DNA of 64,000 bases from Candidatus Hopanoidivorans cymbastelae (GTDB taxonomy: Bacteria > Actinomycetota > Acidimicrobiia > Acidimicrobiales > Hopanoidiivorantaceae). Within the stretch, counting starts at the first letter, position 1. Each line of letters opens with the position of its first letter. Both the position numbers and the translations under genes were made by a program. A model generated the notes under the pieces. That model saw only the letters and a program-made list of their open reading frames with translations, searched no databases and had not been told where the DNA came from. The stretch is from contig JAPYNY010000053.1 in the NCBI GenBank assembly GCA_028283145.1, positions 6,175 to 70,174 of the forward strand, read 5' to 3'. Positions 6,571 through 44,811 of the stretch are shown piece by piece.

Positions 6571-7389
6571 TTAGCGCAAGCGCGGGGTGATGCGCTTGCC
6601 TGAGGAAAACGCTGCCTGTCCTTCTTCCATGGCTTGCTTGGAATTGCCGCAGCCGACCAAAGAAGGCGCCATGGCGATGGCTTGAAGACGGGTGGCTTCG
6701 TGCCCAAACCATATAGCCCGTAGCGTGGTCTGAACTGCCAAAGCAGGCTGGGAGGCAATGGATTCTGCCAGCCAGTTGGCGGCGCCGTGCAGCTCCTCCT
6801 TGGGGACTATTTCACTTAGAAAGCCAATCTCCCGGGCACGCTCGGCGGTGAGGCGTTCGTAATTGCCGAGCAGGCTCAGGCGCATGACTTCCCCGAACGG
6901 CATTTTCTGGAGCATCTGGATGGGCTCAAACACCGCACTCATGCCGTAGGTAACATGCGGGTCAAAAAAAGTTGCGTGGTCTGAGGCGATTATGATGTCG
7001 GCTTCGCTCAGCAGGTAGAACGCTCCCCCACAAGCCATCCCGTTTACGGCTGCTATGACTGGTTTCCACAGGTCGCACTGTTTCGGGCCCAGGTCATGTC
7101 CAGGGTCGTCAAACATATAGGGGTTGGAAGTGTTGAACATGTGCTGCTGGTCTTCGCCCAAGTTGGCCATAGCCTCGGCGCGGTCAATGCCGGTGCAAAA
7201 GGCCCTGTCTCCGGCACCAGTCAGCACCGCTGCACGAATCTCATCAGCCGTCCGTAGGTGGCGCCAGACGCTGCGCAGCTCATCTTGCATTTGCTGGTTG
7301 AAGGCGTTGTAGACTTCGGGACGATTCAGCGTGACCCAAGCTACAGCTCCTTTTTCCTCATAGATAATGGTTTCAAAGTTGTGTTCCAT
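6571..7389 (-). CDS. Enoyl-CoA hydratase/isomerase (crotonase) family protein
   Basis: 'VAWVTLNRPEVYNAF...VLTGAGDRAFCTGID' is the crotonase signature. I moved the start to the internal ATG (MEHNFETIIY), which is preceded by GAAAGG. Confidence 0.85.
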   Translation of the reverse strand: MEHNFETIIYEEKGAVAWVTLNRPEVYNAFNQQMQDELRSVWRHLRTADEIRAAVLTGAGDRAFCTGIDRAEAMANLGEDQQHMFNTSNPYMFDDPGHDLGPKQCDLWKPVIAAVNGMACGGAFYLLSEADIIIASDHATFFDPHVTYGMSAVFEPIQMLQKMPFGEVMRLSLLGNYERLTAERAREIGFLSEIVPKEELHGAANWLAESIASQPALAVQTTLRAIWFGHEATRLQAIAMAPSLVGCGNSKQAMEEGQAAFSSGKRITPRLR

Positions 7390-7412
7390 GTTGTGTGCCT
7401 TTCTGTTTTGAA

Positions 7413-7538
7413 TTATTGAATCCGTAGTGCGTAGTGGAAAATTTCTGCTGCAAAATCTTCCCAAGCCACGTCCTCATTAAGAATTTTGTCCAGCAAGAAC
7501 GTTTTTTCAACTCTTAGCTCTCCCAGTCGTTTTTTCAT
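7413..7538 (-). CDS. Possible 41-aa ORF starting 1 nt after the methyltransferase stop codon
   Basis: Hand translation gives MKKRLGELRVEKTFLLDKILNEDVAWEDFAAEIFHYALRIQ*. The junction reads TGA-G-ATG. The sequence is helical and protein-like, but I see no homology. Confidence 0.25.
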   Translation of the reverse strand: MKKRLGELRVEKTFLLDKILNEDVAWEDFAAEIFHYALRIQ

Positions 7539-7539
7539 C

Positions 7540-9048: not shown

Positions 9049-9342
9049 GCTGTCGTTTTCTGGCTTCGGCAGGCAAGAATTTTACTCCCCTGTCTAGTAG
9101 CTATTGACAATACTTTGCTGCGGCTGCAAGCCAACCAGTCGGCACCGGCCCCCAGTCGGCAGAAATTTCCAATGCTTGCCAGCCCACATAATTTCATATT
9201 CTGCCAGTCAAGACTCACAGCCCAACGTTTTTGGCCTATTTTGAGGATTCCCCTCCCAAAGCCGCCCCCTAGAAGCTCCATGCAATAGCTACTCCTTACA
9301 ATGCTTTCACAGCTAGCACCCAGTCACAAAGGAGTTAGGTCA

Positions 9343-9474
9343 ATGCCTGTCCATTGCCATTCCATCATTCCCTTCAGAACTACAGCCTGCCTCAAGATAC
9401 TTGCCATTGAAGGCACAACCGCTACCACAGGGAGCGTCACAATGCCGCGACTGGTTTATCAATGCTCTCACTAG
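9343..9474 (+). CDS. Possible 43-aa Cys/His-containing ORF upstream of the PIN gene
   Basis: AAGGAG lies 7 nt before the ATG. Translation: MPVHCHSIIPFRTTACLKILAIEGTTATTGSVTMPRLVYQCSH*. No homology recognised. Confidence 0.2.
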   Translation: MPVHCHSIIPFRTTACLKILAIEGTTATTGSVTMPRLVYQCSH

Positions 9475-9522
9475 CAGCCCATGTGGCAGAAGACAACGTC
9501 CCGATGTGAAAGGAAACTTACA

Positions 9523-10176
9523 ATGTCGAAAACTGAGCCTGAGCTTCCACTCAAGTGGTCGAAACCCAAGATCATTGGGGCCAATCTCTTCCTTGACACC
9601 AACATCTGGTCTAACTCGCTTCTGCGCTTAATTTTCCGCTCAGCTGCAGGTGCAGGCTTGTGCCGCCTGTCACTGTCAGATTATGTACTAGAAGAATGGA
9701 TCAGAAAGAACAAACGAGAGAAACACAAAGTCAGTGGGTCTCAGCTTACATACGGGCAACTAGCAGAAATTCTTCAAGAACAGTGCACTTATGTAACGAA
9801 TAAAAGCTGGGAAAAATTCTTGGCTAGGCTTACCGCAACTGAATCAGATGATATGCCCATTATTGCATCGGCACGGGCTGCTAACTCTAACATACTCGTA
9901 ATACTGAATTACAAGCATTTTGACCTTGGGGAAGCTCACGCCCTTGGTCTGGTTGTTTATCCCCCTGACATCATCCTGGCAGAATTCTTATACACCGAGC
10001 CGGTGCTCTGGGGATTATTCGCCAAGCAACAGAAGCACATTGGCAACCTTGCCCCCCAGGTCCAAAAAACCATAGACAACTGGAAGTTAGAACAAAAAAT
10101 GCCCTTGGTGGCTAACGCACTTGCCCAGCACGAGGCTTTTACCTTAACTCCGTTGCAAGGCAGAAACCTGGTTTAA
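9523..10176 (+). CDS. PIN-domain protein (PIN_3/VapC-like nuclease fold) with a ~70-aa C-terminal extension
   Basis: 'LFLDTNIW' supplies the first acidic residue, and 'SDDMPIIASARAANSNILVILNYKHF' is the distal PIN block. Start set at the ATG after AAAGGAAA. Confidence 0.65.
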   Translation: MSKTEPELPLKWSKPKIIGANLFLDTNIWSNSLLRLIFRSAAGAGLCRLSLSDYVLEEWIRKNKREKHKVSGSQLTYGQLAEILQEQCTYVTNKSWEKFLARLTATESDDMPIIASARAANSNILVILNYKHFDLGEAHALGLVVYPPDIILAEFLYTEPVLWGLFAKQQKHIGNLAPQVQKTIDNWKLEQKMPLVANALAQHEAFTLTPLQGRNLV

Positions 10177-10251
10177 CGGAAGCACCTATGCTCGGTACTT
10201 ATTCAATGCGAGGACGACAGACTTTCTAGGCATCTCCCCGCCCTACAAAGC

Positions 10252-10617
10252 ATGCGACTGGTCAATTCTGCTCAAAAAATAGAAACCAACATCAATCTTG
10301 TAGAATTCTGTTACAACTCAGACGGTTTGTTTGAAAGGAGCCAGCGTATGCCTCTTTTGGAGGAATACCTTGACATTCCAATAGAAGACTACAACCTGCC
10401 TCAGTACGCCTACCTGCTTGAGCGCGACTATGGCACATACCGGAAAAACAAGCTGGTCGGCGACTGGGTTGTCCACGGGGTTCCATACGGAATTGAGGAA
10501 TTGCTCTCGCCCTCAGTCTTGATAGACCTGCAGATTGTCAGAGCTGAGGAAGCGGAGCGGGAGGAAAAAAGCAAAACGCCTCCTCTGCTCATGCGATACC
10601 TGTCAGCAACTTGCTGA
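10252..10617 (+). CDS. Hypothetical protein
   Basis: 121-aa ORF in the lower-GC islet. No motif recognised and the start is uncertain. Confidence 0.35.
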   Translation: MRLVNSAQKIETNINLVEFCYNSDGLFERSQRMPLLEEYLDIPIEDYNLPQYAYLLERDYGTYRKNKLVGDWVVHGVPYGIEELLSPSVLIDLQIVRAEEAEREEKSKTPPLLMRYLSATC

Positions 10618-10647
10618 CAGCAGCCCAGCAGCCGCCAAAGCCGCCGC

Positions 10648-12756
10648 CTACTGGAAGCTCACCACATACGGGACAGGCCTTACCGCCAAGACTCGGTTGG
10701 GAGGCAGCGGCCTTGGAATGTCCTCGTCGTAGAAATTCTTCCAGCCCCACCACCAGCCGTTATCCAAAGCCCCTGTGGTGAGTTGCGCATAAGTGTCAAA
10801 CTTCAAATTGGTCTGCCCTTGCCCGTCCATGTGGATCATGACTGCCAGCTCAGGCGGGGCTTTGATGTCTTCCCTGTTGGTGATCATTTGAAAGCTGAAC
10901 TGATGAACCATCAGCAGCTTCTGTGGGAGGTTGTTCTCACGCACTATGTCGGCTAGCCAATCTATGACCTGATTGACTTCTGAACTGTCAACGCTGCCAA
11001 CCTGGCGCAGGTGGAACTGGTCGGGTTTGAGGCGCCATTCAGGGTCAAGCGCCAAACCTACATGAGGCAGTTTGAGCAGTTCCTCATACTCCTTGGCCTG
11101 CGTCAAAAAATCAGTCCGCCCAGGCTGCAGATCCAAAATGACATACATATTCTCCTCGGCTGCCGTTTCAATCCAAGGACGCAGCTCGGCTACCGGGGTA
11201 CGCAGGGAATAGCTGTTGTCATAGTTCGGAGCGCTTGACGCCAACGTAGCGATGATTTCAAAAGCCGTCACCACAGGCAAACCATCCGCGTCATAGCCTT
11301 CGGCGATTTGGCTGGCTCGCTCCACACCTTCCTCGGCACTCTGCTCGCCTAGCACACCCAAAACAGATGTGTTGGTGTGCCCATACATGGCCACAATGCG
11401 CCTGTTCGGAAATAGCAAGTAGCCCCCGCCGGGCAGTTGTTGGCCGGTCGCTATCACCTGAAGTTGCCAGTCGGCATCGTCTGGCATCGGGCCGACAAGT
11501 TGCCAAGCGCGGCTGCGACTAGAAACAGGGCGGCTCAGAACATCCAAACTGGCTTGCGGCGAGCCTCTGAGATCAGCGGGAGCTACATACAGCAAATCGC
11601 CTCCGATGGACGCCAAGGCAGGCTGAGCCAAAATCGCAATTACCGGCTGGTCGGACGCCACCAGCCAAATTGGCCCTTCGCCTTCCCCCTCCACTGTTTT
11701 CGCTGTTTTCGCCAACTCACCCGCTGGGTCCATTATCGCCGGGTCGGACAAGGGATCAATCGCCACAATCTCACCTTCTTCCACAGATGTACTTGCCGAT
11801 GTCGTCTTCAAGACAGCCTCAGAAACGATGGCTTCACGCAATCTGACAGGGGTGGCAGGCCCTGCTAGACGCGGCAAAGTCAGGCGGGCGGCAGACACAG
11901 AGCCGTCATCGGTCATCAAAATATCCGCCGCAGCCGTGATGTATTCAGTGCCTCCAGCCAGGATCAAGGTCACATCGGGCTTCTCCTCGTCTGCCTCCAA
12001 GAACAGCTCAAAGAAAAACTGAGCAGTTTCCTGTGAGCCGATGACCGTTACCCCTTTAGGCTCGAGCCGTCTGAACTCGGCTAGCACCTCGGGGTGGACG
12101 GGGGAGAATGAGACCAGGTCTGGGGAGGTGGTCTCAGGAGAAGCCGTCTCAGGCGAGTCTGACGGGCTGGCTGTGCTGTCGGCAGCGCCGGCATCAGCGC
12201 CATCAACATCGGCGGCCGCAGGGGGCGAAGCGGGCAGGGCTGACGACTGGGCAGATTGATCGGACTCGGCGCCAGCTTGGTTATCTGGCAAAGTCTCGGC
12301 AACATTGACCAACAGCGGGCCATCCCTGAATGCCGCTAGCCGAGCGGCCACAGCAAGCTGATTTACATCCACCACCTCAGAAATCACCAGATGGTCAGCG
12401 CAATCCCGAAAAACTTCCTGAGTGAAAGCCAACGATAGCCCCATCGCATCCTGGGCGCTCAGGGTATAGAACTCCCCCGCTAGGTTATCTCGGTTCAAGG
12501 TTGGAGACAGCAATAAATCGCCAGCTATATGAGGGGTATCGCTGTCGGCCGTCGGCTGACAAACCCTCTGCGACGGACCGGGTCCGTTCCCCTCCGGCTC
12601 AGAAGGATCAGGCTCCTCAGTCTCAACCGGTGCAGGCGGCATCGCTTCTGGCTCTGATGCCTGTGGCACCTCGCCTATAAACAGAAGTGCCAAAATAAAC
12701 AGGCTGAGAATGGAGTACTGCGCACGCTTGGAGGAAATCAACTCATCAATAGGCAA
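10648..12756 (-). CDS. Membrane-anchored/secreted protein of unknown function; C-terminal ~300 aa resembles a conserved actinobacterial secreted-protein domain
   Basis: TTG start, N-terminal TM 'YSILSLFILALLFIG', and acidic/Pro-rich linkers. The conserved tail is 'ILDLQPGRTDFL...VGLALDPEWR...LLMVHQF...MIHMDGQG'. Confidence 0.65.
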   Translation of the reverse strand: MPIDELISSKRAQYSILSLFILALLFIGEVPQASEPEAMPPAPVETEEPDPSEPEGNGPGPSQRVCQPTADSDTPHIAGDLLLSPTLNRDNLAGEFYTLSAQDAMGLSLAFTQEVFRDCADHLVISEVVDVNQLAVAARLAAFRDGPLLVNVAETLPDNQAGAESDQSAQSSALPASPPAAADVDGADAGAADSTASPSDSPETASPETTSPDLVSFSPVHPEVLAEFRRLEPKGVTVIGSQETAQFFFELFLEADEEKPDVTLILAGGTEYITAAADILMTDDGSVSAARLTLPRLAGPATPVRLREAIVSEAVLKTTSASTSVEEGEIVAIDPLSDPAIMDPAGELAKTAKTVEGEGEGPIWLVASDQPVIAILAQPALASIGGDLLYVAPADLRGSPQASLDVLSRPVSSRSRAWQLVGPMPDDADWQLQVIATGQQLPGGGYLLFPNRRIVAMYGHTNTSVLGVLGEQSAEEGVERASQIAEGYDADGLPVVTAFEIIATLASSAPNYDNSYSLRTPVAELRPWIETAAEENMYVILDLQPGRTDFLTQAKEYEELLKLPHVGLALDPEWRLKPDQFHLRQVGSVDSSEVNQVIDWLADIVRENNLPQKLLMVHQFSFQMITNREDIKAPPELAVMIHMDGQGQTNLKFDTYAQLTTGALDNGWWWGWKNFYDEDIPRPLPPNRVLAVRPVPYVVSFQ

Positions 12757-27636: not shown

Positions 27637-28110
27637 ATGTCATTTACCAGTCTGGCCATGCCTGACACGTGTCATATAGGTGATGAAGAGTTGCCTTGGG
27701 CTAATGCCGGGGAGAATATTCGTCTGAAAGTTCTGCACGTCCGCTCGCAAGAGGGTTTGTGGGTCATCCGCAATCAATTCGGCCCTGGCGTGCGGGTGCA
27801 AAAGCACCGTCACACCGGGCCGGTCTTTGGCATTACATCCTCGGGAGCTTGGGGCTATTTGGAGTATGACTATATGAATCGAGCTGGCTCCTATCTGTAT
27901 GAGCCAGCCCACTCAGAGCACAGCCTCTACACCCCCGACGACAACACCGAGCCGACTGACGTTACCTTCGTCATGTATGGCTGCAATCTCAACTTGGATG
28001 AAGACGGCAACGTCGAAAGCGTAACCGACGGGCCGGGCGTGCTTGAAGCCTACTATCTTATGCTGGAAGCGCAAGGCGAGCCCAGACCTAGCAATATTCT
28101 GGTGGACTGA
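27637..28110 (+). CDS. Cupin-fold protein, 2,4'-dihydroxyacetophenone-dioxygenase-like
   Basis: 'VQKHRHTGPVFGITSSGAWGYLEY...YLYEPAHSEH' gives a cupin His pattern. Confidence 0.65.
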   Translation: MSFTSLAMPDTCHIGDEELPWANAGENIRLKVLHVRSQEGLWVIRNQFGPGVRVQKHRHTGPVFGITSSGAWGYLEYDYMNRAGSYLYEPAHSEHSLYTPDDNTEPTDVTFVMYGCNLNLDEDGNVESVTDGPGVLEAYYLMLEAQGEPRPSNILVD

Positions 28111-28677
28111 CGCTGGCTCCGCTGCCTTCTGTCGGGTGTATGTTACACCTATGCGAATTTCAAAGCGTTCCGGGGGACGGTTGCTCGTGTCAAATTTGAG
28201 ATGACTACGCTCTGGTTTGGTTAACGTTCCACCGTCTTCATCTAAAACAGCTAAAGCTTCGTCAAGCGTGTCGTCTTCTGTATCATTCAGTTCAAAGTAG
28301 CACACGGGTAGGCATCCGACTTTGCTGGAAGTCACCCCACCCTCGCCAGGCGCAGCTTCTTGGACGTTAGCTTGATCAGGGAATATGAACGATGTATATT
28401 CGCCGCCTCCGCCAGCTCCGGCGGCTGCTAGCTCCGGGTCGAAGATTTCCCACGGGGCGCATCTGGCTTCCAAGTCGGGAGACTGCTCCTCCAAGTCGTC
28501 GGAGGCACTGCTGGTAATGGCAACTACAATCACCCCGGTGGCCACAGCCATCAACACCAGCACGGCTGTAACTATCAAGGTTTGAAGGGTGATGCCCCGC
28601 TCATCTTCGGCAGGGTTTGCTTCATCTTCAGCAGGGTTAGTTTTTAGGTTGTGTGGAATTGATTGTGTTGGAAACAT
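27913..28677 (-). CDS. Prepilin-like four-Cys protein family, copy A; 3'-truncated relative to copies B/C/D, with the reading frame continuing antisense into the cupin gene
   Basis: Leader ...AEDERG, then 'ITLQTLIVTAVLVLMAVATGVIVVAIT', 'SASDDLEEQSPDLEARCAPWE', 'GGVTSSKVGCLPVCY' and 'RIGVTYTR'. AAGAGG lies 6 nt before the ATG at 28677. Family similarity stops near 28120. Confidence 0.55.
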   Translation of the reverse strand: MFPTQSIPHNLKTNPAEDEANPAEDERGITLQTLIVTAVLVLMAVATGVIVVAITSSASDDLEEQSPDLEARCAPWEIFDPELAAAGAGGGGEYTSFIFPDQANVQEAAPGEGGVTSSKVGCLPVCYFELNDTEDDTLDEALAVLDEDGGTLTKPERSHLKFDTSNRPPERFEIRIGVTYTRQKAAEPASVHQNIARSGLALRFQHKIVGFKHARPVGYAFDVAVFIQVEIAAIHDEGNVSRLGVVVGGVEAVL

Positions 28678-28772
28678 TTTGAGCCTCTTATCGGGTGCGA
28701 AAAATTGGGTGTGAAGAGATGGCAAGAATTGCAAGGTGATAAACAGCCAAAAGCGGAAACTTAAACGCGGTT

Positions 28773-28803
28773 GGGTAGCCCTACATACGGTGCAGGGCTA
28801 CCC
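28773..28803 (-). terminator. Stem-loop just downstream of the LRR gene stop
   Basis: Perfect 10-bp inverted repeat GGGTAGCCCT/AGGGCTACCC with an 11-nt loop. There is no clean U-tail. Confidence 0.45.
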
Positions 28804-28834
28804 TGCAAGCACCAACCGGGCTGTGAACGCTGGT

Positions 28835-30808
28835 TTAGGCTGGGCCGTAGCTGTTGTCAGCGGTGTCCCAGGTTATGGGCACGGCCAGCTGGCTCTGGAA
28901 AAAGACATACATGGTGTCATACCGGTCAACGGCATCCATTACTCCATAGCCATTTGGCGCTATATCTGGATGACAAGGCAGAAGTATCTTGAAATCCTGC
29001 TGTCGCAAGTCGTACGTTATGACAGCCAGCACGCCCGCCAGATTGTCGCAGTCGCTGAGCGTTTCATCGAAGATGCTGTCTGGAGCAGTATCAAAAGCTT
29101 GCTCAGCCGGGGCTAGTATGTTCCAGCCCTGATGCAAAGTCAAAACCATATTTTCACTAACTCGGCCCAGCCCTGCAAATCGTAAGTTGTCGGCGTTGAA
29201 AACCCCTATTTTGTGCATCACCGAAGTGCCACTGTTCAAGATTGAGTTGTCGTCTCGTGTGAAATGAGTGCCCCAACTCTGGGTGCTGGCATCCCAGGAA
29301 TAAATTTCACCAACGAAATTAAGTCCTAAATCACGAGCCATCTGCTGAGCTGAAGTGCCATCGGAGATGACGTTATATGCCCTCCAGCCAAAAATGCTGG
29401 CCTCATTGCCTTCACCATAAAACCTGTTGCTGAAGCCGTTTTGCGCGGTGGCATGATATGGCGTAACGGCGATGACATATTTATCCAAACTCAAAGGATT
29501 TCTGTCATTGCAGGCCAACGCACCGCTGGTCCCAGAGGTGCGTAGGGGTATTGTTGCCTGGGTGGCAGCAGTCTGCCAGAAAAAATTCGTTTCCCAGCTC
29601 TCTACTTCAAATTCAGCAGGCCTGTTAGGGCAAACTCGCTCATGTTCCTCATTGAAGGCATTGTTCTCAGCTTGCTCAATGCTAATCAAATAACCGGTGG
29701 GCGTGAAAGCCGTGCCTGAACTTGGGTCGGTAGGCGCTTCCCAGTCAAGCACCAAATTGCCGCCCGACACAGTTCTAGTCAGGCCAGTTATCGGCGGCAG
29801 CGCATACTGGGAATACCTCTGGCTGTCACACTGCTGGCGACCCAGCGAGAACACGCCAAAGGAAGCGGTGTCCTTGATGCCTGTTACTGGATCAGTTGAA
29901 GGCGGTCGCACATTCCATGAATAGGTGGTGGTCACTTCCTGCAAGGGACGATGCGAGACAGAAAAATCCTCAGGCCAACAAATCCGATTGCCGGAAAGAT
30001 GGAACTCAGGCCTTGCGCGAGCACCTGTATCCATAAAAGTAATCTCACTCAACCAGTCACTTACCCAGCTGCTGTCATCCCCCCACGTCAAGTCATTGTC
30101 GCTGAAAGTGAAATAGTTGACATTTTTCAAATTTCTATATGATCGGGGAATCTCGCCACTGAACTCATTGCGTCTCAGAACAACCAAAATCGTCTTACTT
30201 TCCGAACCAATATCCGGCAAAGGCCCATTGAAAAAATTGTCCTGAGCCAGGAAGCCATAAACATTGCGAAATCCGCTTGGAATAGTGCCGGACATATCGT
30301 TTGAGTTGACGTTGAACCACTGGAGATTGCTCATGCTGGCAAACCCAGCTGGAATCGAACCGGTCAGATTATTGCGCCTGAAACTAGCAAAATTTAAATT
30401 ACTCAAGTTGCCAAAACACTCAGGAAACTTGCCTGAAAAACCATTGATGTCAAACACCAGCCGATCTACGCGCCCCAGCCGGCACAAACTCTGAGGAATT
30501 TCACCAACTAAACCAACAAAATCATCATTGGAAGAACCCTTCATATCTAGCCCAGAGATATAGAACTCGGTACTGGCAGAACCGCTAACACCAATACCTG
30601 CCCAATTCCTAAGCGGTCCCTCACCCCACGTCAAAATAGGGTGATTTACAGAACCATACAAAATACTGCCAGAGCGAAAAACTAAATCATTACGCGCCTC
30701 TACGAGAATCTTGCATTCTCGCCTCAGAGTGCTTACATTGCTCTGGTCGGCTTCTGCTCCGGGGATCCACTCATCGGTGTCGCAACGGTCGGGGTCCAGC
30801 CGCTCCAA
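28835..30808 (-). CDS. Secreted-type plant-like LRR protein with FN3-like and further beta-rich domains (open part; its true start appears detached, see 30825-30959)
   Basis: Repeats of the form 'NNLTGSIPAGFASMSNLQWFNVNSNDMSGTIPSGF' and 'NEFSGEIPRSYRNLKN'. An FN3-like stretch reads 'LTRTVSGGNLVLDWEAPTD'. The track start is a TTG with no SD. Confidence 0.75.
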   Translation of the reverse strand: MERLDPDRCDTDEWIPGAEADQSNVSTLRRECKILVEARNDLVFRSGSILYGSVNHPILTWGEGPLRNWAGIGVSGSASTEFYISGLDMKGSSNDDFVGLVGEIPQSLCRLGRVDRLVFDINGFSGKFPECFGNLSNLNFASFRRNNLTGSIPAGFASMSNLQWFNVNSNDMSGTIPSGFRNVYGFLAQDNFFNGPLPDIGSESKTILVVLRRNEFSGEIPRSYRNLKNVNYFTFSDNDLTWGDDSSWVSDWLSEITFMDTGARARPEFHLSGNRICWPEDFSVSHRPLQEVTTTYSWNVRPPSTDPVTGIKDTASFGVFSLGRQQCDSQRYSQYALPPITGLTRTVSGGNLVLDWEAPTDPSSGTAFTPTGYLISIEQAENNAFNEEHERVCPNRPAEFEVESWETNFFWQTAATQATIPLRTSGTSGALACNDRNPLSLDKYVIAVTPYHATAQNGFSNRFYGEGNEASIFGWRAYNVISDGTSAQQMARDLGLNFVGEIYSWDASTQSWGTHFTRDDNSILNSGTSVMHKIGVFNADNLRFAGLGRVSENMVLTLHQGWNILAPAEQAFDTAPDSIFDETLSDCDNLAGVLAVITYDLRQQDFKILLPCHPDIAPNGYGVMDAVDRYDTMYVFFQSQLAVPITWDTADNSYGPA

Positions 30809-30824
30809 AGACGGCGGCTGAGCA

Positions 30825-30959
30825 CTAGCACCTGAGGTGCCAGCAATTACAACTGCGAGACCCCCCCCCTGCCGATAAAGCCATCACAAAAACCATCGCG
30901 ATAGCCTTACGGCAACCGGATGCCAAAAGCCTCTGAGGGCCAGATGAAATATAAGTCAT
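30825..30959 (-). other. Detached start codon plus signal-peptide n/h-region of the LRR gene (44-codon frame ending after the homopolymer tract)
   Basis: AGGAG (30970-30966), a 6-nt spacer, then ATG at 30959. Translation is MTYISSGPQRLLASGCRKAIAMVFVMALSAGGG... A -1 or +2 nt change in the tract fuses it to the LRR frame. Confidence 0.7.
30861..30869. repeat. Homopolymer tract C9 (G9 on the coding strand)
   Basis: Counted directly: 'gaga ccccccccc tgcc'. Confidence 0.95.
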
Positions 30960-31002
30960 AATAAGCTCCTTTGCTTGAAAAGATGTTTATACATTAAAGC
31001 GT

Positions 31003-31021
31003 ATTATAGCACCTTCCCCCA
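31003..31021 (-). promoter_or_regulatory. Candidate extended -10 promoter TGGGGGAAGGTGCTATAAT upstream of the LRR gene
   Basis: TGn-TATAAT lies about 43 nt upstream of the ATG at 30959. An A/T-rich tract sits just upstream, and a near-identical motif precedes copy B. Confidence 0.45.
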
Positions 31022-31162
31022 TCAATTGCGTTTAACATAACAAAAAATAAAAAATAATTTTTTGCGGTGCTCGTTCAAGCAGACACTTCACCGGCCCAAG
31101 GGGGCACACGCCAACAAGGGCCTAAGCCAGCCTAGACCTACGCTAAAAGCATTGCACCAACC

Positions 31163-31960
31163 TCATTCACGGGAGTCCAAGTGAATCACTTTTGTGCCGG
31201 TGTCTTGAAGTATGCAACCCTCTTGGTCGTTGGTGACTCTGATGACCAGATTGGAACCCTTTGCTTTGGGCGGGATATTCGTACCCACCGGTTCAACAGA
31301 CACTTGATTTATCAGGTCCCATACGTAACCGTTAACTGATGAAAGAATCAGCTCTTCAGCTAAATCCAGAAGAGAGTCATCTGCTGCTGCGACCAGTTGA
31401 GGCCAAGTAACCCCACCTTGCTCTATTATGTCAGCTCTTCCACCTTGGAAGTTTCTTTTGTAGGTTACACCTACACGAACCTGGTTCATTTCCGGTTTTT
31501 CATTGGTGGTAGCAAAACTGAGTTCAATATCGTGGCTTGGGTCCTCTTGTATCCTTTTGACGAGTTGGTCAAGCGTCCTATCTTCAAAAGGCGCGTTAAG
31601 GCTTGTGTGAACACTCAAATAGCAGGGAGCAAAGCAACCTATGCCGCTAGAGGTTACCCCCCCCCTGCCAGGAGTTGGAGTGCCGATTACTTCGGTTTCA
31701 AGCGGTTCACCTCCGCCGATTCCTAAAGCTTCTCGTTCAGGATCGTGGAATTCCCACGGAGCGCACTTGGCTTCCAAGTCGGGGGACTGTTCGCTTAGAT
31801 CGTCAGAAGCGCTGTTGGTGATAGCTACTACAACCACCCCGGCTGCCACAGCCATCAGCACCAGCACAGCCGTTACTATCAGGGTTTGGAGGGTGATGCC
31901 CCGCTCATCTCTAGACGGATTTGACAACTGCTTCAGCACGATTTGGGGATTTCTGAGCAT
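31163..31960 (-). CDS. Prepilin-like four-Cys protein family, copy B
   Basis: 'MLRNPQIVLKQLSNPSRDERG|ITLQTLIVTAVLVLMAVAAG...', then 'CAPWEFHDP', 'GGVTSSGIGCFAPCY', 'VRVGVTYKR' and 'VGTNIPPKAKGSNLVIRVTNDQEGC'. In-frame ATGs at 31969 and 32020 are alternative starts. Confidence 0.7.
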   Translation of the reverse strand: MLRNPQIVLKQLSNPSRDERGITLQTLIVTAVLVLMAVAAGVVVVAITNSASDDLSEQSPDLEAKCAPWEFHDPEREALGIGGGEPLETEVIGTPTPGRGGVTSSGIGCFAPCYLSVHTSLNAPFEDRTLDQLVKRIQEDPSHDIELSFATTNEKPEMNQVRVGVTYKRNFQGGRADIIEQGGVTWPQLVAAADDSLLDLAEELILSSVNGYVWDLINQVSVEPVGTNIPPKAKGSNLVIRVTNDQEGCILQDTGTKVIHLDSRE

Positions 31961-32058
31961 TGTGAACATCCTTTTGGCATATTGGACTGCGGGAGACAGG
32001 GGCGACAATCCGATAATCAACTGCCTAACGATTTAGTGGCACTCTCCTCCACCAAAAA

Positions 32059-32078
32059 ATTCTAGCACCGCTCCCCCA
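32059..32078 (-). promoter_or_regulatory. Candidate extended -10 promoter TGGGGGAGCGGTGCTAGAAT upstream of copy B
   Basis: TGn-TAGAAT with the same G-rich element as at 31003-31021. Confidence 0.4.
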
Positions 32079-32136
32079 GTGCTTGAGTCCTGAGCCAAAA
32101 TATAAAATTCAAAACAACTTGGCAGCCAATAAACGC

Positions 32137-32877
32137 CTATGGTGCTTGGTTCTCGTCTGGCACCTGGTTTAAGACTCCAGGGTCTGATTCTTCTTCTACG
32201 GAGTTAACCTGGGGTACGTCTGATTTTGTGTCGGCAATGAAGCAACTGTCTTTGTCACCGGTTACCTTGATACCCAGAGAGGAAACCTCGTCAGTGGGTG
32301 GAATGTGCGTGCCCAGTTGTTCTTTGACCTCGCCACCTACAACTATTTTGTATCCATAGCCGGTGGAGGAATCATCGTCTTGTTGCAGGCCAGTTGCAGT
32401 GCCTCGTCGATAAGTCACGCCCACTCGAAATTCTCTGATACCGCTTTCTGGTGGGCGGTTGGAGGCATCAAATTTAAGCCTTGAAACCCCCACGATCGGA
32501 GCTTGAGCAACAAGGTCATCCAGCGTTAATCCATTTGGCGGCATTGTAACGTAACACGGGGCTAGACATCCTATTTTGCTGGAGGTGACCCCTCCCCTGC
32601 CAGGCATGGGAGAGCCCACGACCATGCCATTTTCATCCACTTCAATCAGCCCGCCGCCTCCAACCCCGGCTGCTTCCAGTTCTGGATCGTGTATCTCCCA
32701 CGGGGCGCATTTGGCTTCCAAGTCGGGCGACTGTTCCTCCAAGTCGTCCGATGCGCTGTCTGTGATGGCCACTATGACAACCCCTGCCGCCACAGCCAAA
32801 AGCACCAAAACAGCGGTGATGACAAGCGTTTGAAGCGTGATACCCCGCTCTGCTGTATTCGGGCTTGGTCTCAGCAT
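32137..32877 (-). CDS. Prepilin-like four-Cys protein family, copy C
   Basis: 'MLRPSPNTAERG|ITLQTLVITAVLVLLAVAAG...', then 'CAPWEIHDP', 'GGVTSSKIGCLAPCY', 'FRVGVTYRR' and 'GTHIPPTDEVSSLGIKVTGDKDSC'. The ORF-track start at 32913 is an alternative. Confidence 0.7.
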   Translation of the reverse strand: MLRPSPNTAERGITLQTLVITAVLVLLAVAAGVVIVAITDSASDDLEEQSPDLEAKCAPWEIHDPELEAAGVGGGGLIEVDENGMVVGSPMPGRGGVTSSKIGCLAPCYVTMPPNGLTLDDLVAQAPIVGVSRLKFDASNRPPESGIREFRVGVTYRRGTATGLQQDDDSSTGYGYKIVVGGEVKEQLGTHIPPTDEVSSLGIKVTGDKDSCFIADTKSDVPQVNSVEEESDPGVLNQVPDENQAP

Positions 32878-32980
32878 GCGTGCTGTCGTGCACTCTTGAA
32901 AAACCATAAACATCCGTTAGAGCATGGGAAAACAGAGCACGGCTCCACGCAGCACGAAAAACTCGAAGAGCCGCGGTCTG

Positions 32981-35900: not shown

Positions 35901-36136
35901 CGCAACGACAAGATGAGCACAATCAGGCCCACTACCACCAGCAACAGGATCACTCTGGCGCGGGTGGAGAAGCGACCGCGGCGGCTGCGTGGGGAACGAG
36001 ACCGGGGTGGGCCAGACCTAGTAGGCCCGCCGCCTGTCGGCCCACTGCCGGAAGAAGACGGCCGTGTGCGGGGGCGCGCTGAAGTTGGGCGCTCCTGGGA
36101 AGGATTGGGGTTGGAGGCGCCGTTACCTATGGTCAT
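32981..36136 (-). CDS. UPF0182-family large membrane protein
   Basis: 1051 aa. It has an N-terminal multi-TM region, 'NSVKAVVDSFDGSVTLY', and a C-terminal Thr/Pro tract followed by a helical tail. Its pairing with the PDZ protease is typical of Actinomycetota. Confidence 0.9.
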   Translation of the reverse strand: MTIGNGASNPNPSQERPTSARPRTRPSSSGSGPTGGGPTRSGPPRSRSPRSRRGRFSTRARVILLLVVVGLIVLILSLRGIASFYTDYLWFDSIDQTQVWSYVLLAKIIMAVIAIGLFFILLWASLAIADRIAPDPRPSGPEEDVLSRWHNLVGKRKILVRSLIAFFFAFVTGIGASNRWQEWLLFINRKDFGVKDPQFNLDIGFYVFQLPFLKFVVDWLFTAFLIIFFITVVIHYINGGIRFQTSGQRVLPAVKAHLSVLLGILALVRAADYWLDRYSLTTSSQGVVDGVSYTDVNARLPVLYLLIVIAFLAFCLFIYNIWRKGWALPVIAVCLWAFVAIVMGNIYPFIVQRFQVEPAESTREQELMENNIQFTRQAIALDNVETRLFETGDPLTFADIEDNQDNIDVIPLLDAEVLPQTFENLEGERGFYRFPEALDVDRYEVDGEVVPVVLGARQLNPDRLPTNTWEASRLTYTHGYGLALAPANRVEAGLPDFVVGGLAVERNELGLPLDEPRVYFAEDLGGYAIVNTDRQEVDEEQADESAGEEGLQSYSYDGDGGVEIGGWWRKAAFALRFGDIDPLISNFIRSDSRVLYVRDVRERVEKLAPFLHFDSDPYAVISEGRIKYVLDAYTTTRFYPFAQRADIEQLPAGSGLRHNFNYVRNSVKAVVDSFDGSVTLYQVDAEDPIVNAYRGAFPNLFVDKSEMPADLLRHIRYPSDLFRVQTNVWARYQLGDTQKFYEQAEGWAVAQDPGGVSGAAVTAVVNEEGVLLTSRERRIDPYYTLLRLPEEDAQQFVILRPYVPISTEDTRKELAAFMVAVSDDQDYGKLIVYRTPGGDIDGPALVNSKIQSDPNISRVITLLDQQGSQVEFGDLLLVPVDQSILYVRPLYVVASSTQVPELQQVIAVLDESVVMCPQLNESLEALFGLTPIATQGDTAVTGGCTGTVEGVSLGQTPPDGTPTPPTTTTQPPSPTTTTQPPTTTTTTTEPPPTTTAPGTPAPTQDVEALLAEASAAFEDAQAALQRGDLGEYQEQVERAERLIAQASELLS

Positions 36137-37689
36137 GCGGATTCCACTGAAACATCTGCTGATGCCAACTGAGATACCACAACTGAAATCTCATCTTGCG
36201 AAAACCGTCTGTAGATGTCACGCACCTGCTGAACCAGAGCTTTGGAATCGGTGTTTTGTAGGTCGCAAGAATCTAATTCCTCAATTAGTGGGGTTAGTAA
36301 AACTCTAGTAAGCATATCATGGGATACTTCGCTGCCTAAAGATTCCCTAAAGGAAGCTCGACGAGGCACCTCGCTCAGAATCGCTTTTTGGAGCGACTTT
36401 ACCTTACTGGATTTGCCGTGGAATTTGTGAATCGCCCGCAGGACACGGCTTTCATCGTGGGTAAGGGCACGTTTCAGTTGACGCTCCAGGTCGGCATCTG
36501 GAGTGGGTGGAGTGGACTCAGCGGAAGACGACTCAACTGGAGTTGCCCCACCGGGCGGTGCCTCACCAGATAATGTCTCACCAGTAAGCACCTCACCAGA
36601 TGGCACCTCGGTCACCACCGGTTCAACTGGGATTTCCTCGGTTGGCGCTTTTTTGGAACGACTTTTGGTGGGCTTCAGTTCCGGTTCGGTAGCAGCTTCG
36701 TCAGTTGTGGTCGTTTCAGAAGTGGGAGTTTCAGTTTCGCCGACAGATTCTTTTTCACGCAGTCTGGCAAAGATGCTGGATAGATCTGCCGAAGGCTGTT
36801 TGGAAGTGTCTTGCGAAACAGGTTCTACAGTTACATCTTCTAACTCTTGGGGGGACTCAACTGCACCCACTTTGGGAGACTTTGCTGAGGCTGTCTCTTG
36901 TGCTGTTTCAGTCGCTACGCCGACATCCACTGCAGCGCGAGCGCGAACGTCGGTCGCATCACTCACAACAGCCCCCTCTCCTGCCTTAGCCCCAATATCC
37001 TGTGATCTATCCTGTGATCCCTCAGACGACGGTCCATGAGCTACTTCTGCCCCCAACTCTTCAACCGTCTCTTGCGTCTCTTGTTGCCTTTGTCTGAACT
37101 GCTGCACAGCATTGTCGGCAGCAGTCTTGGCGCGCTCTAGGGCACTGTCTAATGGCTCCACAGCTTGAGCGGTAATACGCTGCACTTGGCTGAACGATGC
37201 CAACAACTCATCTCTGGCGGCCCGCAACATCTCCACATGAGCCTGAGCCTCCTTGCGGCGGCGCATGAGGTCACCCATAATTCGCTGCTTGGCTTGCTCG
37301 GCTTCGGAAGTAATCTGGTTTGCTTTGGCCTTGGCTGCGCTTTCGATTTCTTGTACCTCGCGGTTGGTTTTTTCCAGCATTCGGCGGGCTTCAGTTCGCA
37401 GTCTGTCAGCCTCAAGTGAAGCGGCATTGAGGCGACGGGCTGCCCTAGCTTCAATGTCTTCCATGACTGCCATTTGCTCGCTGGCTTCGGCCTCCGAAAT
37501 GTCTCCCTCCCCCACTACAGAAACAGCTAGAGCAGAGGCTTGCTCCCTCAGCAACTCAGACATCATGGTGGAGACCTGCTTCAGGAATTCGTCAACCTCG
37601 GTTCGGTCATAACCCCGTCGCACCACCGTAAACTTACGATTTTGGATTTGGGGCGGAAGGAATGCGCTGCTGTCGTCTGGTTGGGTCAT
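36133..37689 (-). CDS. DivIVA-domain protein with a long coiled-coil and low-complexity region
   Basis: 'FTVVRRGYDRTEVDEFLKQV' is the DivIVA N-terminal motif. I moved the start to ATG 37689 to remove the overlap with the upstream gene. Confidence 0.75.
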   Translation of the reverse strand: MTQPDDSSAFLPPQIQNRKFTVVRRGYDRTEVDEFLKQVSTMMSELLREQASALAVSVVGEGDISEAEASEQMAVMEDIEARAARRLNAASLEADRLRTEARRMLEKTNREVQEIESAAKAKANQITSEAEQAKQRIMGDLMRRRKEAQAHVEMLRAARDELLASFSQVQRITAQAVEPLDSALERAKTAADNAVQQFRQRQQETQETVEELGAEVAHGPSSEGSQDRSQDIGAKAGEGAVVSDATDVRARAAVDVGVATETAQETASAKSPKVGAVESPQELEDVTVEPVSQDTSKQPSADLSSIFARLREKESVGETETPTSETTTTDEAATEPELKPTKSRSKKAPTEEIPVEPVVTEVPSGEVLTGETLSGEAPPGGATPVESSSAESTPPTPDADLERQLKRALTHDESRVLRAIHKFHGKSSKVKSLQKAILSEVPRRASFRESLGSEVSHDMLTRVLLTPLIEELDSCDLQNTDSKALVQQVRDIYRRFSQDEISVVVSQLASADVSVESA

Positions 37690-37726
37690 GGGCTGACTGT
37701 AGGGTTTATTAGCGGCGACATGCTTT

Positions 37727-39244
37727 CTAACGAATCGAATCGCAGTCGGGTAACTGCGCGGTGGAAGCATCCGAATAATTGCTCCCGACCGGTACGGGGT
37801 CGCCACCCAGGCACTCCAAAACCGCTATGGCTTCGTGCAAGTCTGACACCTCTATTACTTTCAAGGAATCTCCCGCAGCACTGGCTGCTTCTGCATAGTC
37901 GTTGCCATCTTCTGGCACCAAAAAGACATCATATCCATTATGGCGCACAGCGGTTGTTTTTTGCGTAACTCCACCGACTGAACAAATCTTGCCGTATTTA
38001 AAGGAGCACTCTGGGCGTTGCTCTCTGAAGAATTTTATGGGATAAAAACTCACGTTGGAGTTGACAACCCCAGTTGTGGCCACCCTCAAGTTGCCTGTGA
38101 GATCGCCTTCCGATAGCAAATCGATGACCGACAAAGTGAAGGCCAGTCCCGCTGATGGGCCTGAAACTTCTCCGGCATCAAGACGCACGCTCTCCAACAG
38201 GTCGGCTTCGGCGGAATCATAGGCAAACCAAGACTGCTGGTCTCGGCACTTGAAGTTTGCGTCATCACCCTCGCCCGAGACATCACCCTCGCCCGTGGCG
38301 TTGTCATCGCCTGAAGTATCGTTTTGAGTGGAGGTGTCTTCTAAGAAATTGATGTTGAAGAAGAAAGCCCCGCGTTCCAATCGCTGGGTTACTTCTATTT
38401 CCGCTTCTACGGTGAAGATGCCCGACTGGTTTGAGCTGTCTGCTGAATCGCCAGCCGTTTGATCGTCTTGTGGTGATTCCGTAGGCTGTGACTGCTCAGA
38501 CTCCGATCCCTCAGACTCCGGTGGCACCAACCCGTTGATCTCCAACTCCACAGTTTCACCTTCAGGCAAATTGTCGACCAACTCCAGCAGGTCTGTGGTT
38601 TTGTCAATCGTCTTGCCATTGGCGGACTGCACCACGTCTCCCGGCAAAAATACTATGTAGGGCCTGGGTTCTGAGTTCTCCGAGTCGGAGTCATCACCGT
38701 AAAGGCACTCATAGGTATCAAGAGACGGAAACAAGGTAACTTCTGTCAATCCCAGAAACTCCAGTGCCAAGGTAACGGCGCTTTTCTGGGAAGCTCGCAT
38801 CAGTTCTAGGTTGCGCTGGTCTGTTTCCTCTCGGGTTCCGCCTCTATTGATGACCTCCTCCTTGTAGATGTCAATGCGGTCGTCAAGGGAATCAAAGAAA
38901 AATCGCCACAAGGTCAGCTTTTGCGAAACCCCGACCGTTACAAACCCCACTTCAGACTCAGGTTCAAATATGGGCACACCCTCATCATCCACCGCAATGG
39001 CATCGGGTGCGCTGTAAACACTTCCTGGCGAGAGCGAAACATAGGGCACCTTGACAACATTCACCACCACTGCCGTGGCACAAGTCAGCGCTGAAACTAC
39101 AATTGAACCGATAGCCCACTTCCATTGGCGACGGCTTAGTCGCTTGCGACTGAAGCGCGGCAGATACGCCTCAGTTTCTTCCTCAGGCAACTGGGACTGG
39201 TCTGTGGGCGGCGGGTCTGCGCCTGGCTGGTTTGTGTCCGTCAT
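37727..39244 (-). CDS. PDZ-domain plus Lon-like (S16) serine protease, membrane anchored
   Basis: N-terminal TM, a PDZ-like 'GDVVQSANGKTI', and the Lon catalytic block 'VSGPSAGLAFTLSVIDLL'. Two acidic low-complexity inserts are present. Confidence 0.8.
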   Translation of the reverse strand: MTDTNQPGADPPPTDQSQLPEEETEAYLPRFSRKRLSRRQWKWAIGSIVVSALTCATAVVVNVVKVPYVSLSPGSVYSAPDAIAVDDEGVPIFEPESEVGFVTVGVSQKLTLWRFFFDSLDDRIDIYKEEVINRGGTREETDQRNLELMRASQKSAVTLALEFLGLTEVTLFPSLDTYECLYGDDSDSENSEPRPYIVFLPGDVVQSANGKTIDKTTDLLELVDNLPEGETVELEINGLVPPESEGSESEQSQPTESPQDDQTAGDSADSSNQSGIFTVEAEIEVTQRLERGAFFFNINFLEDTSTQNDTSGDDNATGEGDVSGEGDDANFKCRDQQSWFAYDSAEADLLESVRLDAGEVSGPSAGLAFTLSVIDLLSEGDLTGNLRVATTGVVNSNVSFYPIKFFREQRPECSFKYGKICSVGGVTQKTTAVRHNGYDVFLVPEDGNDYAEAASAAGDSLKVIEVSDLHEAIAVLECLGGDPVPVGSNYSDASTAQLPDCDSIR

Positions 39245-43174: not shown

Positions 43175-44032
43175 TCAGCCCAAGCGCGAGTCCAAAAGGA
43201 TATCGTTCGTGACAGTATCGTAAACGACGCAGCCATCGCCGTCGGTCGTTACTTTGATGCTCAATGTGGAGCCCTGGTCAGTTGGTGGGACATTTGTGCC
43301 AACCGGATAGACATTTGGATTTGAGCCATATGGACCATCCCAACGCCATGCATAACCATTGGTTGATCCACGGGTAGCATCTTTTAGTCGTTGGTTAGGC
43401 ACGTACGTGACCCCATCATGGGGATTTTGAATATCAAAATGTTCATAATTGACATTCATTAGTTCAGTATTCCCACTGTCACCTGCTCCCCCTTTGAAGT
43501 AAGTTACCCCAATACGGTATTCACTGTGAGCAGGGAAGCTATTGTCAGTTTTGAACTTGATGTAGGAATGCTTGGCTTCTACCATCATAGAGGCGCCAGT
43601 GTCATAGTCAGTAACTGGCACCGGCTCCATTAAATCGTCAAGTGTATGGACTCGCGCTACCCGAATTTCCCGTTCCACATAGCAGGGGGCAAAGCATCCT
43701 ATTCCGCTAGAAGTATATCCCCCGTTGCCTGGGGTTGCTTGTGGAGTATTGGAGGTGGGGTTATATCTGAACTCTGTGAATTCTTCCCCTCCGCCTCCAC
43801 CGACGGCTGCCAGCACTGGATCGTGAAATTCCCAGGGAGCACACCTGCCTTCCAAGCTGGGTTGCTGTGCTTCCAAGTCATCCGATGCGCTGCCAGTGAT
43901 GGCTGCTATGATCACTCCTCCGGCTACCGCCAACAACACCAAAACGGCTGTAATGATCAGGGTTTGCAGGGTGAAGCCCCGCTGGTCGTGGGGGGTCAAT
44001 TGTTTGCTGTATCTGGTAGATCTGAGCTTCAT
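43175..44032 (-). CDS. Prepilin-like four-Cys protein family, copy D (dispersed)
   Basis: 'MKLRSTRYSKQLTPHDQRG|FTLQTLIITAVLVLLAVAGG...', then 'CAPWEFHDP', 'GGYTSSGIGCFAPCY', 'YRIGVTYFK' and 'VGTNVPPTDQGSTLSIKVTTDGDGC'. GGAGA precedes this ATG; the ATG at 44047 is an alternative start. Confidence 0.7.
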   Translation of the reverse strand: MKLRSTRYSKQLTPHDQRGFTLQTLIITAVLVLLAVAGGVIIAAITGSASDDLEAQQPSLEGRCAPWEFHDPVLAAVGGGGGEEFTEFRYNPTSNTPQATPGNGGYTSSGIGCFAPCYVEREIRVARVHTLDDLMEPVPVTDYDTGASMMVEAKHSYIKFKTDNSFPAHSEYRIGVTYFKGGAGDSGNTELMNVNYEHFDIQNPHDGVTYVPNQRLKDATRGSTNGYAWRWDGPYGSNPNVYPVGTNVPPTDQGSTLSIKVTTDGDGCVVYDTVTNDILLDSRLG

Positions 44033-44301: not shown

Positions 44302-44811
44302 ATGGGGATTTTTTCTAGAAAAGACGATTACCACAACCCATTTGTGCGCAACGAGAAAGTTGTGGCGGCCTATGACCTGCCTGGTGTGCCCGAGCGCACT
44401 CCGGGAGTGGTCAAGATGGTGAACGGGTTTGAGTGGCGACGCTACATGGTGTTCTTCGAGAACGGAATTCAGTTGGGCTCGCTGGACGGCTCAGCCTTGG
44501 TGCGCCCCAAGCACTGGCGCAGATGGTGCGAAGACAAAGACAGGATAGCTGCAAAAATTGCAGCCCGACTGGAAGCCGAAGCAACTGAACAAGAAAACCT
44601 GCTGGCCAGCCTCAACTCAGAGGAAGACGGTGCGGCAGTTGCGAGTGCTGGCGAAGCAATAGCCGAAGAATCCCTAGTCGGAGCTTCAGACAGCGGGACT
44701 GCCCCAATTGAAGACGCAGCAAGCAGTGCTGAAACAACCCGCCTGCTGGAGATGTTGCCTGAGCATTTGCGCGAACGCAGTCGGCTTGCCAGAGAACGAC
44801 TGAGCGGCTAG
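44302..44811 (+). CDS. Hypothetical protein
   Basis: 169-aa ORF with a globular N-terminal half and an acidic/Ala-rich C-terminal half. No motif recognised. Confidence 0.5.
   Translation: MGIFSRKDDYHNPFVRNEKVVAAYDLPGVPERTPGVVKMVNGFEWRRYMVFFENGIQLGSLDGSALVRPKHWRRWCEDKDRIAAKIAARLEAEATEQENLLASLNSEEDGAAVASAGEAIAEESLVGASDSGTAPIEDAASSAETTRLLEMLPEHLRERSRLARERLSG

Follow-up and report, generated by a model that had tools for sequence, protein, structure and literature searches.

The stretch of Candidatus Hopanoidivorans cymbastelae DNA considered here (64,000 nucleotides of contig JAPYNY010000053.1, hereafter the window) carries four minus-strand genes, designated copies A to D, which encode a family of proteins with a prepilin-like N-terminus and a cysteine-containing ectodomain (Table 1). 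The original prediction placed these genes correctly and was right to call them paralogues, as borne out by the open reading frames and by tblastn, in which the pairs share 42–55% identity at E values of 1e-35 to 1e-53, far above chance; the same search detected no fifth copy in the 64-kb window. The products are 246–290 residues long and begin with leaders of 12–28 residues that end in ERG or QRG. All of the motifs initially ascribed to them can be found, namely ERG/QRG↓[I/F]TLQTL (the arrow denotes the putative processing junction), SASDDL, CAPWE, a glycine run, GGVTSS.IGC..CY, R[IV]GVTY and, at the C-terminus, GT.[IV]PP...KVT.D..C..DT. The four-cysteine plan held for the family in general and failed for copy A, a truncated gene whose product has three cysteines. 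The copy B protein is identical to a database protein (P0004), and guanine–cytosine (GC) content is 0.50–0.51 in copies B and D and in the leucine-rich repeat (LRR) gene that lies between A and B, versus 0.57 in the nearby UPF0182 gene.

Table 1. Family genes, their N-terminal modules and the intervening LRR gene, in positions of the window
Feature	Positions	Strand	Remarks
Copy A, truncated allele	27913..28677	-	Homologous part 28118-28677: leader, pilin-like module, N-terminal half of ectodomain
Copy A, non-homologous read-through	27913-28117		Antisense to cupin gene; tblastn homology ends at about nucleotides 28105-28129
Copy A, pilin-like N-terminal module	28468..28605	-	DERG↓ITLQTLIVTAVLVLMAVATGVIVVAITSSASDDLEEQSPDLE; translation checked
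LRR protein, between A and B	28835..30808	-	657 residues; Pfam LRR_1/LRR_8
Copy B, full-length	31163..31960	-	265 residues (268 from the ATG at 31969)
Copy B, pilin-like N-terminal module	31772..31909	-	DERG↓ITLQTLIVTAVLVLMAVAAGVVVVAITNSASDDLSEQSPDLE; translation checked
Copy C, full-length	32137..32877	-	246 residues; modelled with AlphaFold2
Copy C, pilin-like N-terminal module	32716..32853	-	AERG↓ITLQTLVITAVLVLLAVAAGVVIVAITDSASDDLEEQSPDLE; translation checked
Copy D, dispersed, full-length	43175..44032	-	285 residues; longest variable middle of the four
Copy D, pilin-like N-terminal module	43850..43987	-	DQRG↓FTLQTLIITAVLVLLAVAGGVIIAAITGSASDDLEAQQPSLE; translation checked

The N-terminal module is far better conserved than the ectodomain. 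It can be written as [D][E/Q][R]G↓[I/F/Y]TLQTLI[V/I]TAV(LVL), within some 28 uncharged residues that lead into a hinge of the form [R/N]-S-[A/S]-S-D-D-L-E; in the window copies the helix reads ITLQTLIVTAVLVL...AIT. Across 111 distinct N-termini, the Gly at position -1 is present in all, Leu+3 and Thr+5 in 109 each, Glu or Gln at -3 in 102, Thr+2 in 100 and Arg-2 in 77, the other residues at -2 being Gln, Ser, Leu or Val, and -4 being mostly Asp. Position +4 is Gln in every sequence that has the motif. The uncharged run that follows the Gly has a median length of 28.5 residues (range 24–37). The initial view of RG↓[I/F]TLQTL as a prepilin-type junction devoid of Glu+5 is thus supported by the invariant Gly-1, and it is refined by a homology to pilins of Tad loci.

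That homology emerged from a profile of the module alone, which recovered small proteins of 64–101 residues that are covered by no Pfam or NCBIfam model and three of which were placed in their genomic context. One of them, P0268 (68 residues, DERG↓MTTETVIITAVLAL, or over a longer stretch ...DERG↓MTTETVIITAVLALLAITAG...), is encoded in locus L023 between T2SSF and a TadE–TadE–Tad series of pseudopilins that match TadE and Tad, the place that Flp takes in tad loci of actinobacteria; this pilin has Glu at +4. A second, P0260 (95 residues, ...DERG↓ITLQTVIITAVLALAAAGAG...), carries exactly the window motif and belongs to locus L024, where the gene order is SAF (CpaB-like), TadZ-like, T2SSE, T2SSF, TadC-like, two tandem pilins and three TadE/Tad-like pseudopilins, the last with DERG↓ or DQRG↓ junctions and with TadE/Tad matches only just under the Pfam thresholds. 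The third, P0261 in locus L025 (NCBI GCA_029782575.1), is followed by three TadE-like genes, as in L024. When the family module is aligned with the Glu+4 pilins, hhalign returns a probability of 97.7% and an E value of 2.3e-12; the 38 aligned columns are 47% identical and stay in register from the DERG leader end. The copy D module is itself matched by the L024 pilins at E 1e-7 (tblastn), and Gln and Glu replace each other at +4 among close relatives (P0260/P0261 vs. P0264/P0265, with P0266-P0276 also having Glu). At the level of sequence, the homology between the family module and the small pilins of Tad loci can thus be taken as shown.

Two features of these loci deserve separate mention. 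In L024 (5149-13478; ENA ERZ25070185 ctg127257), a Tad-like locus that is complete, the two tandem pilins, which are candidates for the major subunit and read G↓ITLQTVIITAV..., have no acidic residue up to position 30 of the mature protein, and the pilins of L024 and L025 (107-2431) have long leaders that contain a hydrophobic stretch. A similar hydrophobic leader is seen in a sub-group of the recovered proteins (P0016-P0019, P0128, P0137 and P0144; e.g., L001 10001-10825), in which an extra hydrophobic segment lies upstream of ..SRG↓[I/F]TLQT and the Cys-rich ectodomain is a different one.

The module also shares much with known class III signal peptides, for which the bacterial rule employed by PilFind is [GAS]x4[DE] (PMC3244431). 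It has the required Gly, Ala, or Ser at -1 (invariably Gly) where a short charged leader ends, no more than about 35–50 residues from the N-terminus, followed by at least 14 uncharged residues, in proteins with a single transmembrane segment and fewer than 350 residues (PMC3244431). It likewise conforms to archaeal signals of the FlaFind type, which combine G/A/S at -1 and a charged -2 (here Arg in 77 of the 111) with an H-domain and have no need of Glu+5 (PMC4371748); this is a likeness of signal type, not proof of archaeal descent. Profile libraries, searched with 40 N-terminal segments, give matches of limited strength: Arch_flagellin is the Pfam family matched most often (5 of the 40, best E 8e-5), GspH is matched weakly by nine (E about 0.01–0.1, best 0.0088) and ranks behind three unrelated single-helix models, and six of the nine PDB matches are archaellins or the Iho670 filament, at E values of 0.4–6. 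Weak as they are, these matches point to type IV filament subunits above any other functional class.

The ectodomain is specific to the family and comprises about 200 residues with four invariant cysteines (C57, C104, C108 and C212 in copy C), which presumably form two disulfides, together with the equally invariant motifs GGV.SS.IGC..CY and R.GV.Y. An AlphaFold2 model of copy C, obtained with a 37-sequence alignment (mean predicted local distance difference test score, pLDDT, 72.6; predicted template-modelling score 0.63), consists of a helix at residues 13–46, a low-confidence hinge and a beta-rich domain, and that of copy D is poorer (pLDDT 56.9, with residues 179–253 of low confidence). 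The original prediction could assign the mature domain to no known family, and this assessment stands: neither Pfam nor NCBIfam matches the full proteins of A to D, the family profile finds nothing meaningful in the PDB, and Foldseek links the predicted structures to no characterized non-pilin fold, its best PDB matches not falling below E values of about 1 for copy D and 2 for copy C, a result whose reading is limited by model quality. The module also precedes unrelated ectodomains, namely RCC1 propellers (P0147, P0151, P0156 and P0158), two other Cys-rich domains and, marginally, Calx-beta (P0146, just under the Pfam threshold). Given these fusions, it behaves as a portable targeting or assembly unit.

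The family is rare and limited to a narrow lineage of Acidimicrobiia. A word-seeded search of 5.8 billion proteins returned 19 clusters, and when 1.84 billion representatives were searched exhaustively with a profile, 174 were returned, of which 131 at E ≤ 1e-10 keep the conserved cysteines and motifs, with no flood of ordinary pilins. Conserved relatives thus exist outside the window, with the restriction that only two of 185,579 species genomes carry the family, both being complete chromosomes of Acidimicrobiia assembled from metagenomes (OY282367.1 and OZ241989.1, the latter labelled Ca. Hopanoidivoransaceae). Peptide-pattern scans of metagenome contigs gave 30 and 34 matches in two rounds, none upheld by tblastn and hence no further loci, and literature searches on accessions of metagenome-assembled genomes and on Hopanoidivoransaceae found nothing. 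Where the family occurs it is multi-copy and often tandem: a 12-kb stretch of L012 contains six copies, L011 has three to four, and L008 and L007 have two each; several database members are frameshifted fragments. The six copies of L012 (1-12023, OY282367.1 926250-938272) lie on both strands and have near-identical leaders and modules (..SSHTERG↓ITLQTLIVTAVLVLVAVGAA..), which suggests recent tandem amplification or gene conversion. A 125-residue open reading frame found in both L011 (15032-15406) and L013 (3044-3418) begins ..VGFTLQTLIAAEAAMSLALAF, retaining the motif without the pilin helix, and is probably what remains of a decayed family gene.

Further insight into the window genes comes from a related strain (L020/L021/L022, 97.8% identical in DNA to the window; L021 is NCBI GCA_028278945.1 JAPYNZ010000068.1), with which the window shares the gene order CysS, hypothetical gene, PDZ/Lon, DivIVA, UPF0182, C, B, LRR, A and cupin. 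In this strain the orthologue of copy A is intact, with 259 residues and the family C-terminal module at its end, and the window lacks 299 bp that are present there (L020 13331-13629; window junction at about 28118). Copy A of the window is thus a deletion-truncated allele: the deletion removed its 3′ end and the intergenic spacer, leaving homology up to about residue 187, some 67 final codons of read-through and a 198-nucleotide antisense overlap with the convergent cupin gene (27637-28110). The ratio of nonsynonymous to synonymous divergence (dN/dS) between the window and L020, proposed as a check in the original prediction, is 0.17 in copy C and 0.19 in copy B, both of which are under purifying selection, 0.38 in the LRR gene and 0.81 in the portion of copy A that remains; intact family orthologues are found in several strains. 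Copy B further stands out by its synonymous divergence (dS 0.35 vs. 0.014–0.05 in eight other genes compared), with 29 amino acid differences and a five-codon length change between window 31163-31960 and L020 9478-10290. Such a high dS indicates allelic replacement or recombination at this gene, which is a local hot spot of either process. Elsewhere in the shared block, the DivIVA-like gene (window 36133-37806) has a dN/dS of 0.76 against the related strain (14 amino acid and 6 synonymous changes) and is unusually relaxed beside UPF0182, which shows no amino acid change in 1051 codons.

The neighbors of the family genes in the window are cupin, LRR, UPF0182 and PNPOx genes, and beside copy D lies a 169-residue open reading frame (44302-44811) without a Pfam match. 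The co-location of family and LRR genes, first proposed for the window, recurs in a second genome. The C-terminal domain of the window LRR protein matches a gene at L010 11106-13640 (30% identity over 175 residues, E 4e-16, tblastn), which encodes 844 residues with a Sec-like N-terminus and strong matches in two LRR blocks; in two different genomes, therefore, family genes adjoin an LRR protein whose C-terminal domain is conserved and lies outside the repeats. The window LRR protein itself (TTG start) has no obvious signal peptide. The absence of a pilus ATPase, platform protein and prepilin peptidase from the 64 kb, also part of the original prediction, was confirmed, and when the window and about 380 kb of related loci were searched by motif and tblastn for A24, T2SSE, T2SSF and Flp-like open reading frames, the peptidase of L010 was the sole match. 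In L007, a 1267-residue ATPase with an FHA domain and two FtsK/SpoIIIE domains (EccC-like; 7279-11082) is encoded 4.5 kb downstream of two tandem family copies; because it is found in one locus only, it was judged probably coincidental.

The peptidase of L010 (OZ241989.1, open reading frame 9229-9732) is a member of Peptidase_A24 (41 bits vs. a cut-off of 26.5, E 2.8e-10), of TadV size at 167 residues and with the motifs DIRERILP, GFGDVRL and PFGPFL. A family gene (9908-10951), transcribed divergently from it, begins at a distance of 176 bp and is followed by the LRR homologue. Its 18 close homologues span 160–167 residues and are separated by a gap from ordinary actinobacterial prepilin peptidases; one of them, P0214, resides on a contig of 2,252,737 bp that also carries the family fragment P0109. 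A24 peptidases are thus present in two family-bearing genomes, OZ241989.1 and that of the 2.25-Mb contig. A conserved operon of peptidase and family gene was considered and rejected: four other A24 loci have a housekeeping context (Amidohydro_2, A24, NadA, UvrC) with no family gene nearby, so that the adjacency in L010 represents a single insertion event. For such an adjacency to arise by chance we estimate a probability of about 1%, counting some ten genes of the family and a single A24 gene in a total of about 2,500.

Taken together, we consider it likely that copies A to D are prepilin-like modular pilins of the Tad type (type IVc, Flp-like), most likely pilus or surface adhesins processed by a prepilin peptidase. 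Each protein consists of a short hydrophilic leader ending in D-E/Q-R-Gly, a pilin helix and, after the SASDDLE..P hinge, the beta-rich ectodomain. The pathway we infer, which comprises cleavage, filament incorporation, disulfide formation and an adhesin function, would begin with insertion of the protein into the membrane by its hydrophobic helix, after which a short TadV-like A24 aspartic peptidase would cut behind the invariant Gly at the cytoplasmic face. In substrates of PilD and TadV, cleavage depends on Gly-1 and does not require the acidic residue. The mature helix could then join a Tad filament as a minor, sparse or tip subunit that carries the ectodomain, or could alternatively stay in the membrane as a pilin-type anchor that displays it; within a filament, a sparse or tip position is most plausible given the bulk of the ectodomain and the lack of Glu. 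The multiple, recombining ectodomains and the recurrent LRR neighbor suggest that the ectodomains are probably adhesins or ligand binders, possibly acting with the linked secreted LRR protein.

A number of observations weigh against this interpretation. The acidic residue that PilFind expects at +5 is missing, with Gln at +4 and Thr at +5 (PMC3244431), and no pilin model in Pfam or NCBIfam (N_methyl, Flp_Fap, DUF4244, TadE, Tad) reaches its threshold. Specifically, the N_methyl and prepilin cleavage-methylation models give no match at E ≤ 1 with the full proteins or E ≤ 10 with the 40 segments, the weak GspH matches and one PilX_N match being all that was obtained; the Flp signature G↓xxxxEY is absent, there being no Glu-Tyr, and Flp_Fap (PF04964) matches none of the segments and DUF4244 (PF14029) one of the 40, at E 0.029; and TadE (PF07811) and Tad (PF13400) find no match in the family. 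The proteins exceed the Flp size of about 50–100 residues and are encoded outside tad loci, and neither the window nor the surroundings of family genes in the 380 kb of related loci contain a Tad ATPase, platform protein or peptidase, except in L010, where the adjacency is the single event described above. The Tad loci used for comparison (L023, L024 and L025) belong to other lineages (GC 75% and 47%), those with TLQT pilins having a GC content of 47%. Lastly, and within the limits set by model quality, no headgroup of the pilin type packs against the helix in the copy C model, and Foldseek likewise fails to retrieve a pilin.

Several of these points would also suit uncleaved, signal-anchored (type II) surface proteins, in which the pilin-derived helix serves as an anchor, and maybe as an oligomerization or partner helix, and is never processed or built into a filament. 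The scattering of family genes among metabolic genes away from pilus machinery, the lack of an acidic residue at +4 and +5, the predicted flexible hinge without a pilin-like headgroup and the presence of an adjacent peptidase in one case only are all compatible with such an anchor. An anchor of this kind would, however, hardly be expected to keep an invariant Gly at the boundary between charged and hydrophobic residues, or a D-E-R-G end shared with Tad-locus pilins and TadE-like proteins, and the Gln+4 and Thr+5 are found in bona fide Tad-locus pilins too; moreover, the acidic residue is in general dispensable for cleavage and Gly-1 is not. We therefore regard an uncleaved anchor as unlikely, if worth keeping in mind. 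Between the two options of the original prediction, the pilin-like subunit has gained support, and the signal-anchored adhesin has become the less likely on account of the invariant Gly-1 and the homology to Tad pilins.

Still less probable, and to our minds quite doubtful, is a Sec signal peptide cut by signal peptidase I at ..AIT-x-S-[AS]↓S-D-D.., which would yield soluble secreted proteins. Small residues after the hydrophobic stretch (T27, S29, A/S30 and S31) could act as -3 and -1, and the LRR homologue of L010 has a classical Sec-like N-terminus. However, an uncharged run of 24–37 residues has the length of a transmembrane or pilin helix and goes beyond a Sec h-region, the segment is homologous over its 38 aligned columns to helices that mature Tad pilins keep, and such extreme conservation is unusual for a signal peptide that is discarded. 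Decaying, non-functional genes left by a lineage-specific expansion, as the truncation and high dN/dS of copy A and the frameshifted database members might suggest, can be set aside as most improbable, since decay is true of copy A only, whereas dN/dS is low in B and C, the 131 clusters retain the cysteines and motifs, and intact orthologues exist in several strains.

The modular Tad-type pilins that we favor can be compared with several known systems. They resemble the unannotated Flp/Tad (type IVc) pilins of Actinomycetota described above in the D-E-R-Gly leader end, in a helix that aligns in register (T+2, [E/Q]+4, T+5, I+7, T+9, A+10, V+11, L+12 ... G+20), in an ITLQT identical to that of the L024 and L025 pilins and in a TadV-sized A24 peptidase within the same lineage. 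They differ in their length (246–290 residues, not 60–100), the novel ectodomain, the lack of a tad locus and the absence of G↓xxxxEY. The combination of a pilin N-terminus with an extra adhesive domain is known from modular type IV pilins, with PilB and PilC of Streptococcus sanguinis as examples (PMC8179133), and from TadG-type pseudopilins (PF13400). Those proteins are marked by an N_methyl/GFxxxE or TadE/Tad signature, and in them a pilin headgroup separates the helix from the added module, whereas here the ectodomain directly follows the helix through a hinge and no curated model matches. Archaellins, PilA1-6 of Haloferax and the Sulfolobus bindosome proteins have in common with the family Gly-1, a usually charged -2 and no need of Glu+5 (PMC4371748). 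The family Thr-Leu-Ile-Val at +5 to +8 is in register with the archaellin GIGTLIVF; the Haloferax PilA paralogues likewise have a near-identical hydrophobic domain and are not encoded beside the machinery, and the sugar-binding proteins of the bindosome carry large non-pilin ectodomains (PMC4371748). The family is nonetheless bacterial, its similarity to archaellins is weak, and the homologues that could be demonstrated are Tad pilins of bacteria. A further comparison is with GspK, a minor pseudopilin of type II secretion that lacks Glu5, has a bulky domain and acts as a tip subunit. The family resembles it in pairing a class III N-terminus without the acidic residue with a bulky domain; no sequence or fold similarity to it was detected, and the GspH matches are weak.

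A broader and more speculative proposal, which we advance tentatively and think unlikely to hold as a whole, is that the Tad-pilin N-terminus is a general surface-display signal in this lineage of Acidimicrobiia. A TadV-like peptidase would process a whole Gln+4 repertoire, comprising the ectodomain family, RCC1 propellers, possibly Calx-beta and other Cys-rich domains, which would be mounted on, or anchored beside, a Tad filament whose major pilin itself lacks the acidic residue supposed to be essential. If so, bacteria would have their own parallel to the bindosome and PilA H-domain systems of archaea, one that relies on a different chemistry of subunit docking.

The concept of a modular pilin is itself known (PMC8179133); what is new here is an unannotated class of Tad pilin without the acidic residue, whose module is reused on many ectodomains. 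An acidic +5 is deemed near-universal among the subunits of bacterial type IV filaments and is demanded by tools for finding pilins, so that sequences with Gln and Thr in its place are invisible to Pfam, NCBIfam and rules of the PilFind type. Gln and Thr occur in this way in one clade of pilins from Tad loci and, in far greater number, in multi-domain proteins, all of which can now be annotated by the signature DERG↓xTLQT[LV]I[IV]TAV. If the family proteins are processed and assembled, Tad pili would bear modular, fast-varying adhesin domains and would offer a natural test case for pilus assembly without the salt bridge from Glu to the N-terminus, and an uncultured lineage of Acidimicrobiia would gain, in this family and its linked LRR protein, candidates for surface and host-interaction proteins.

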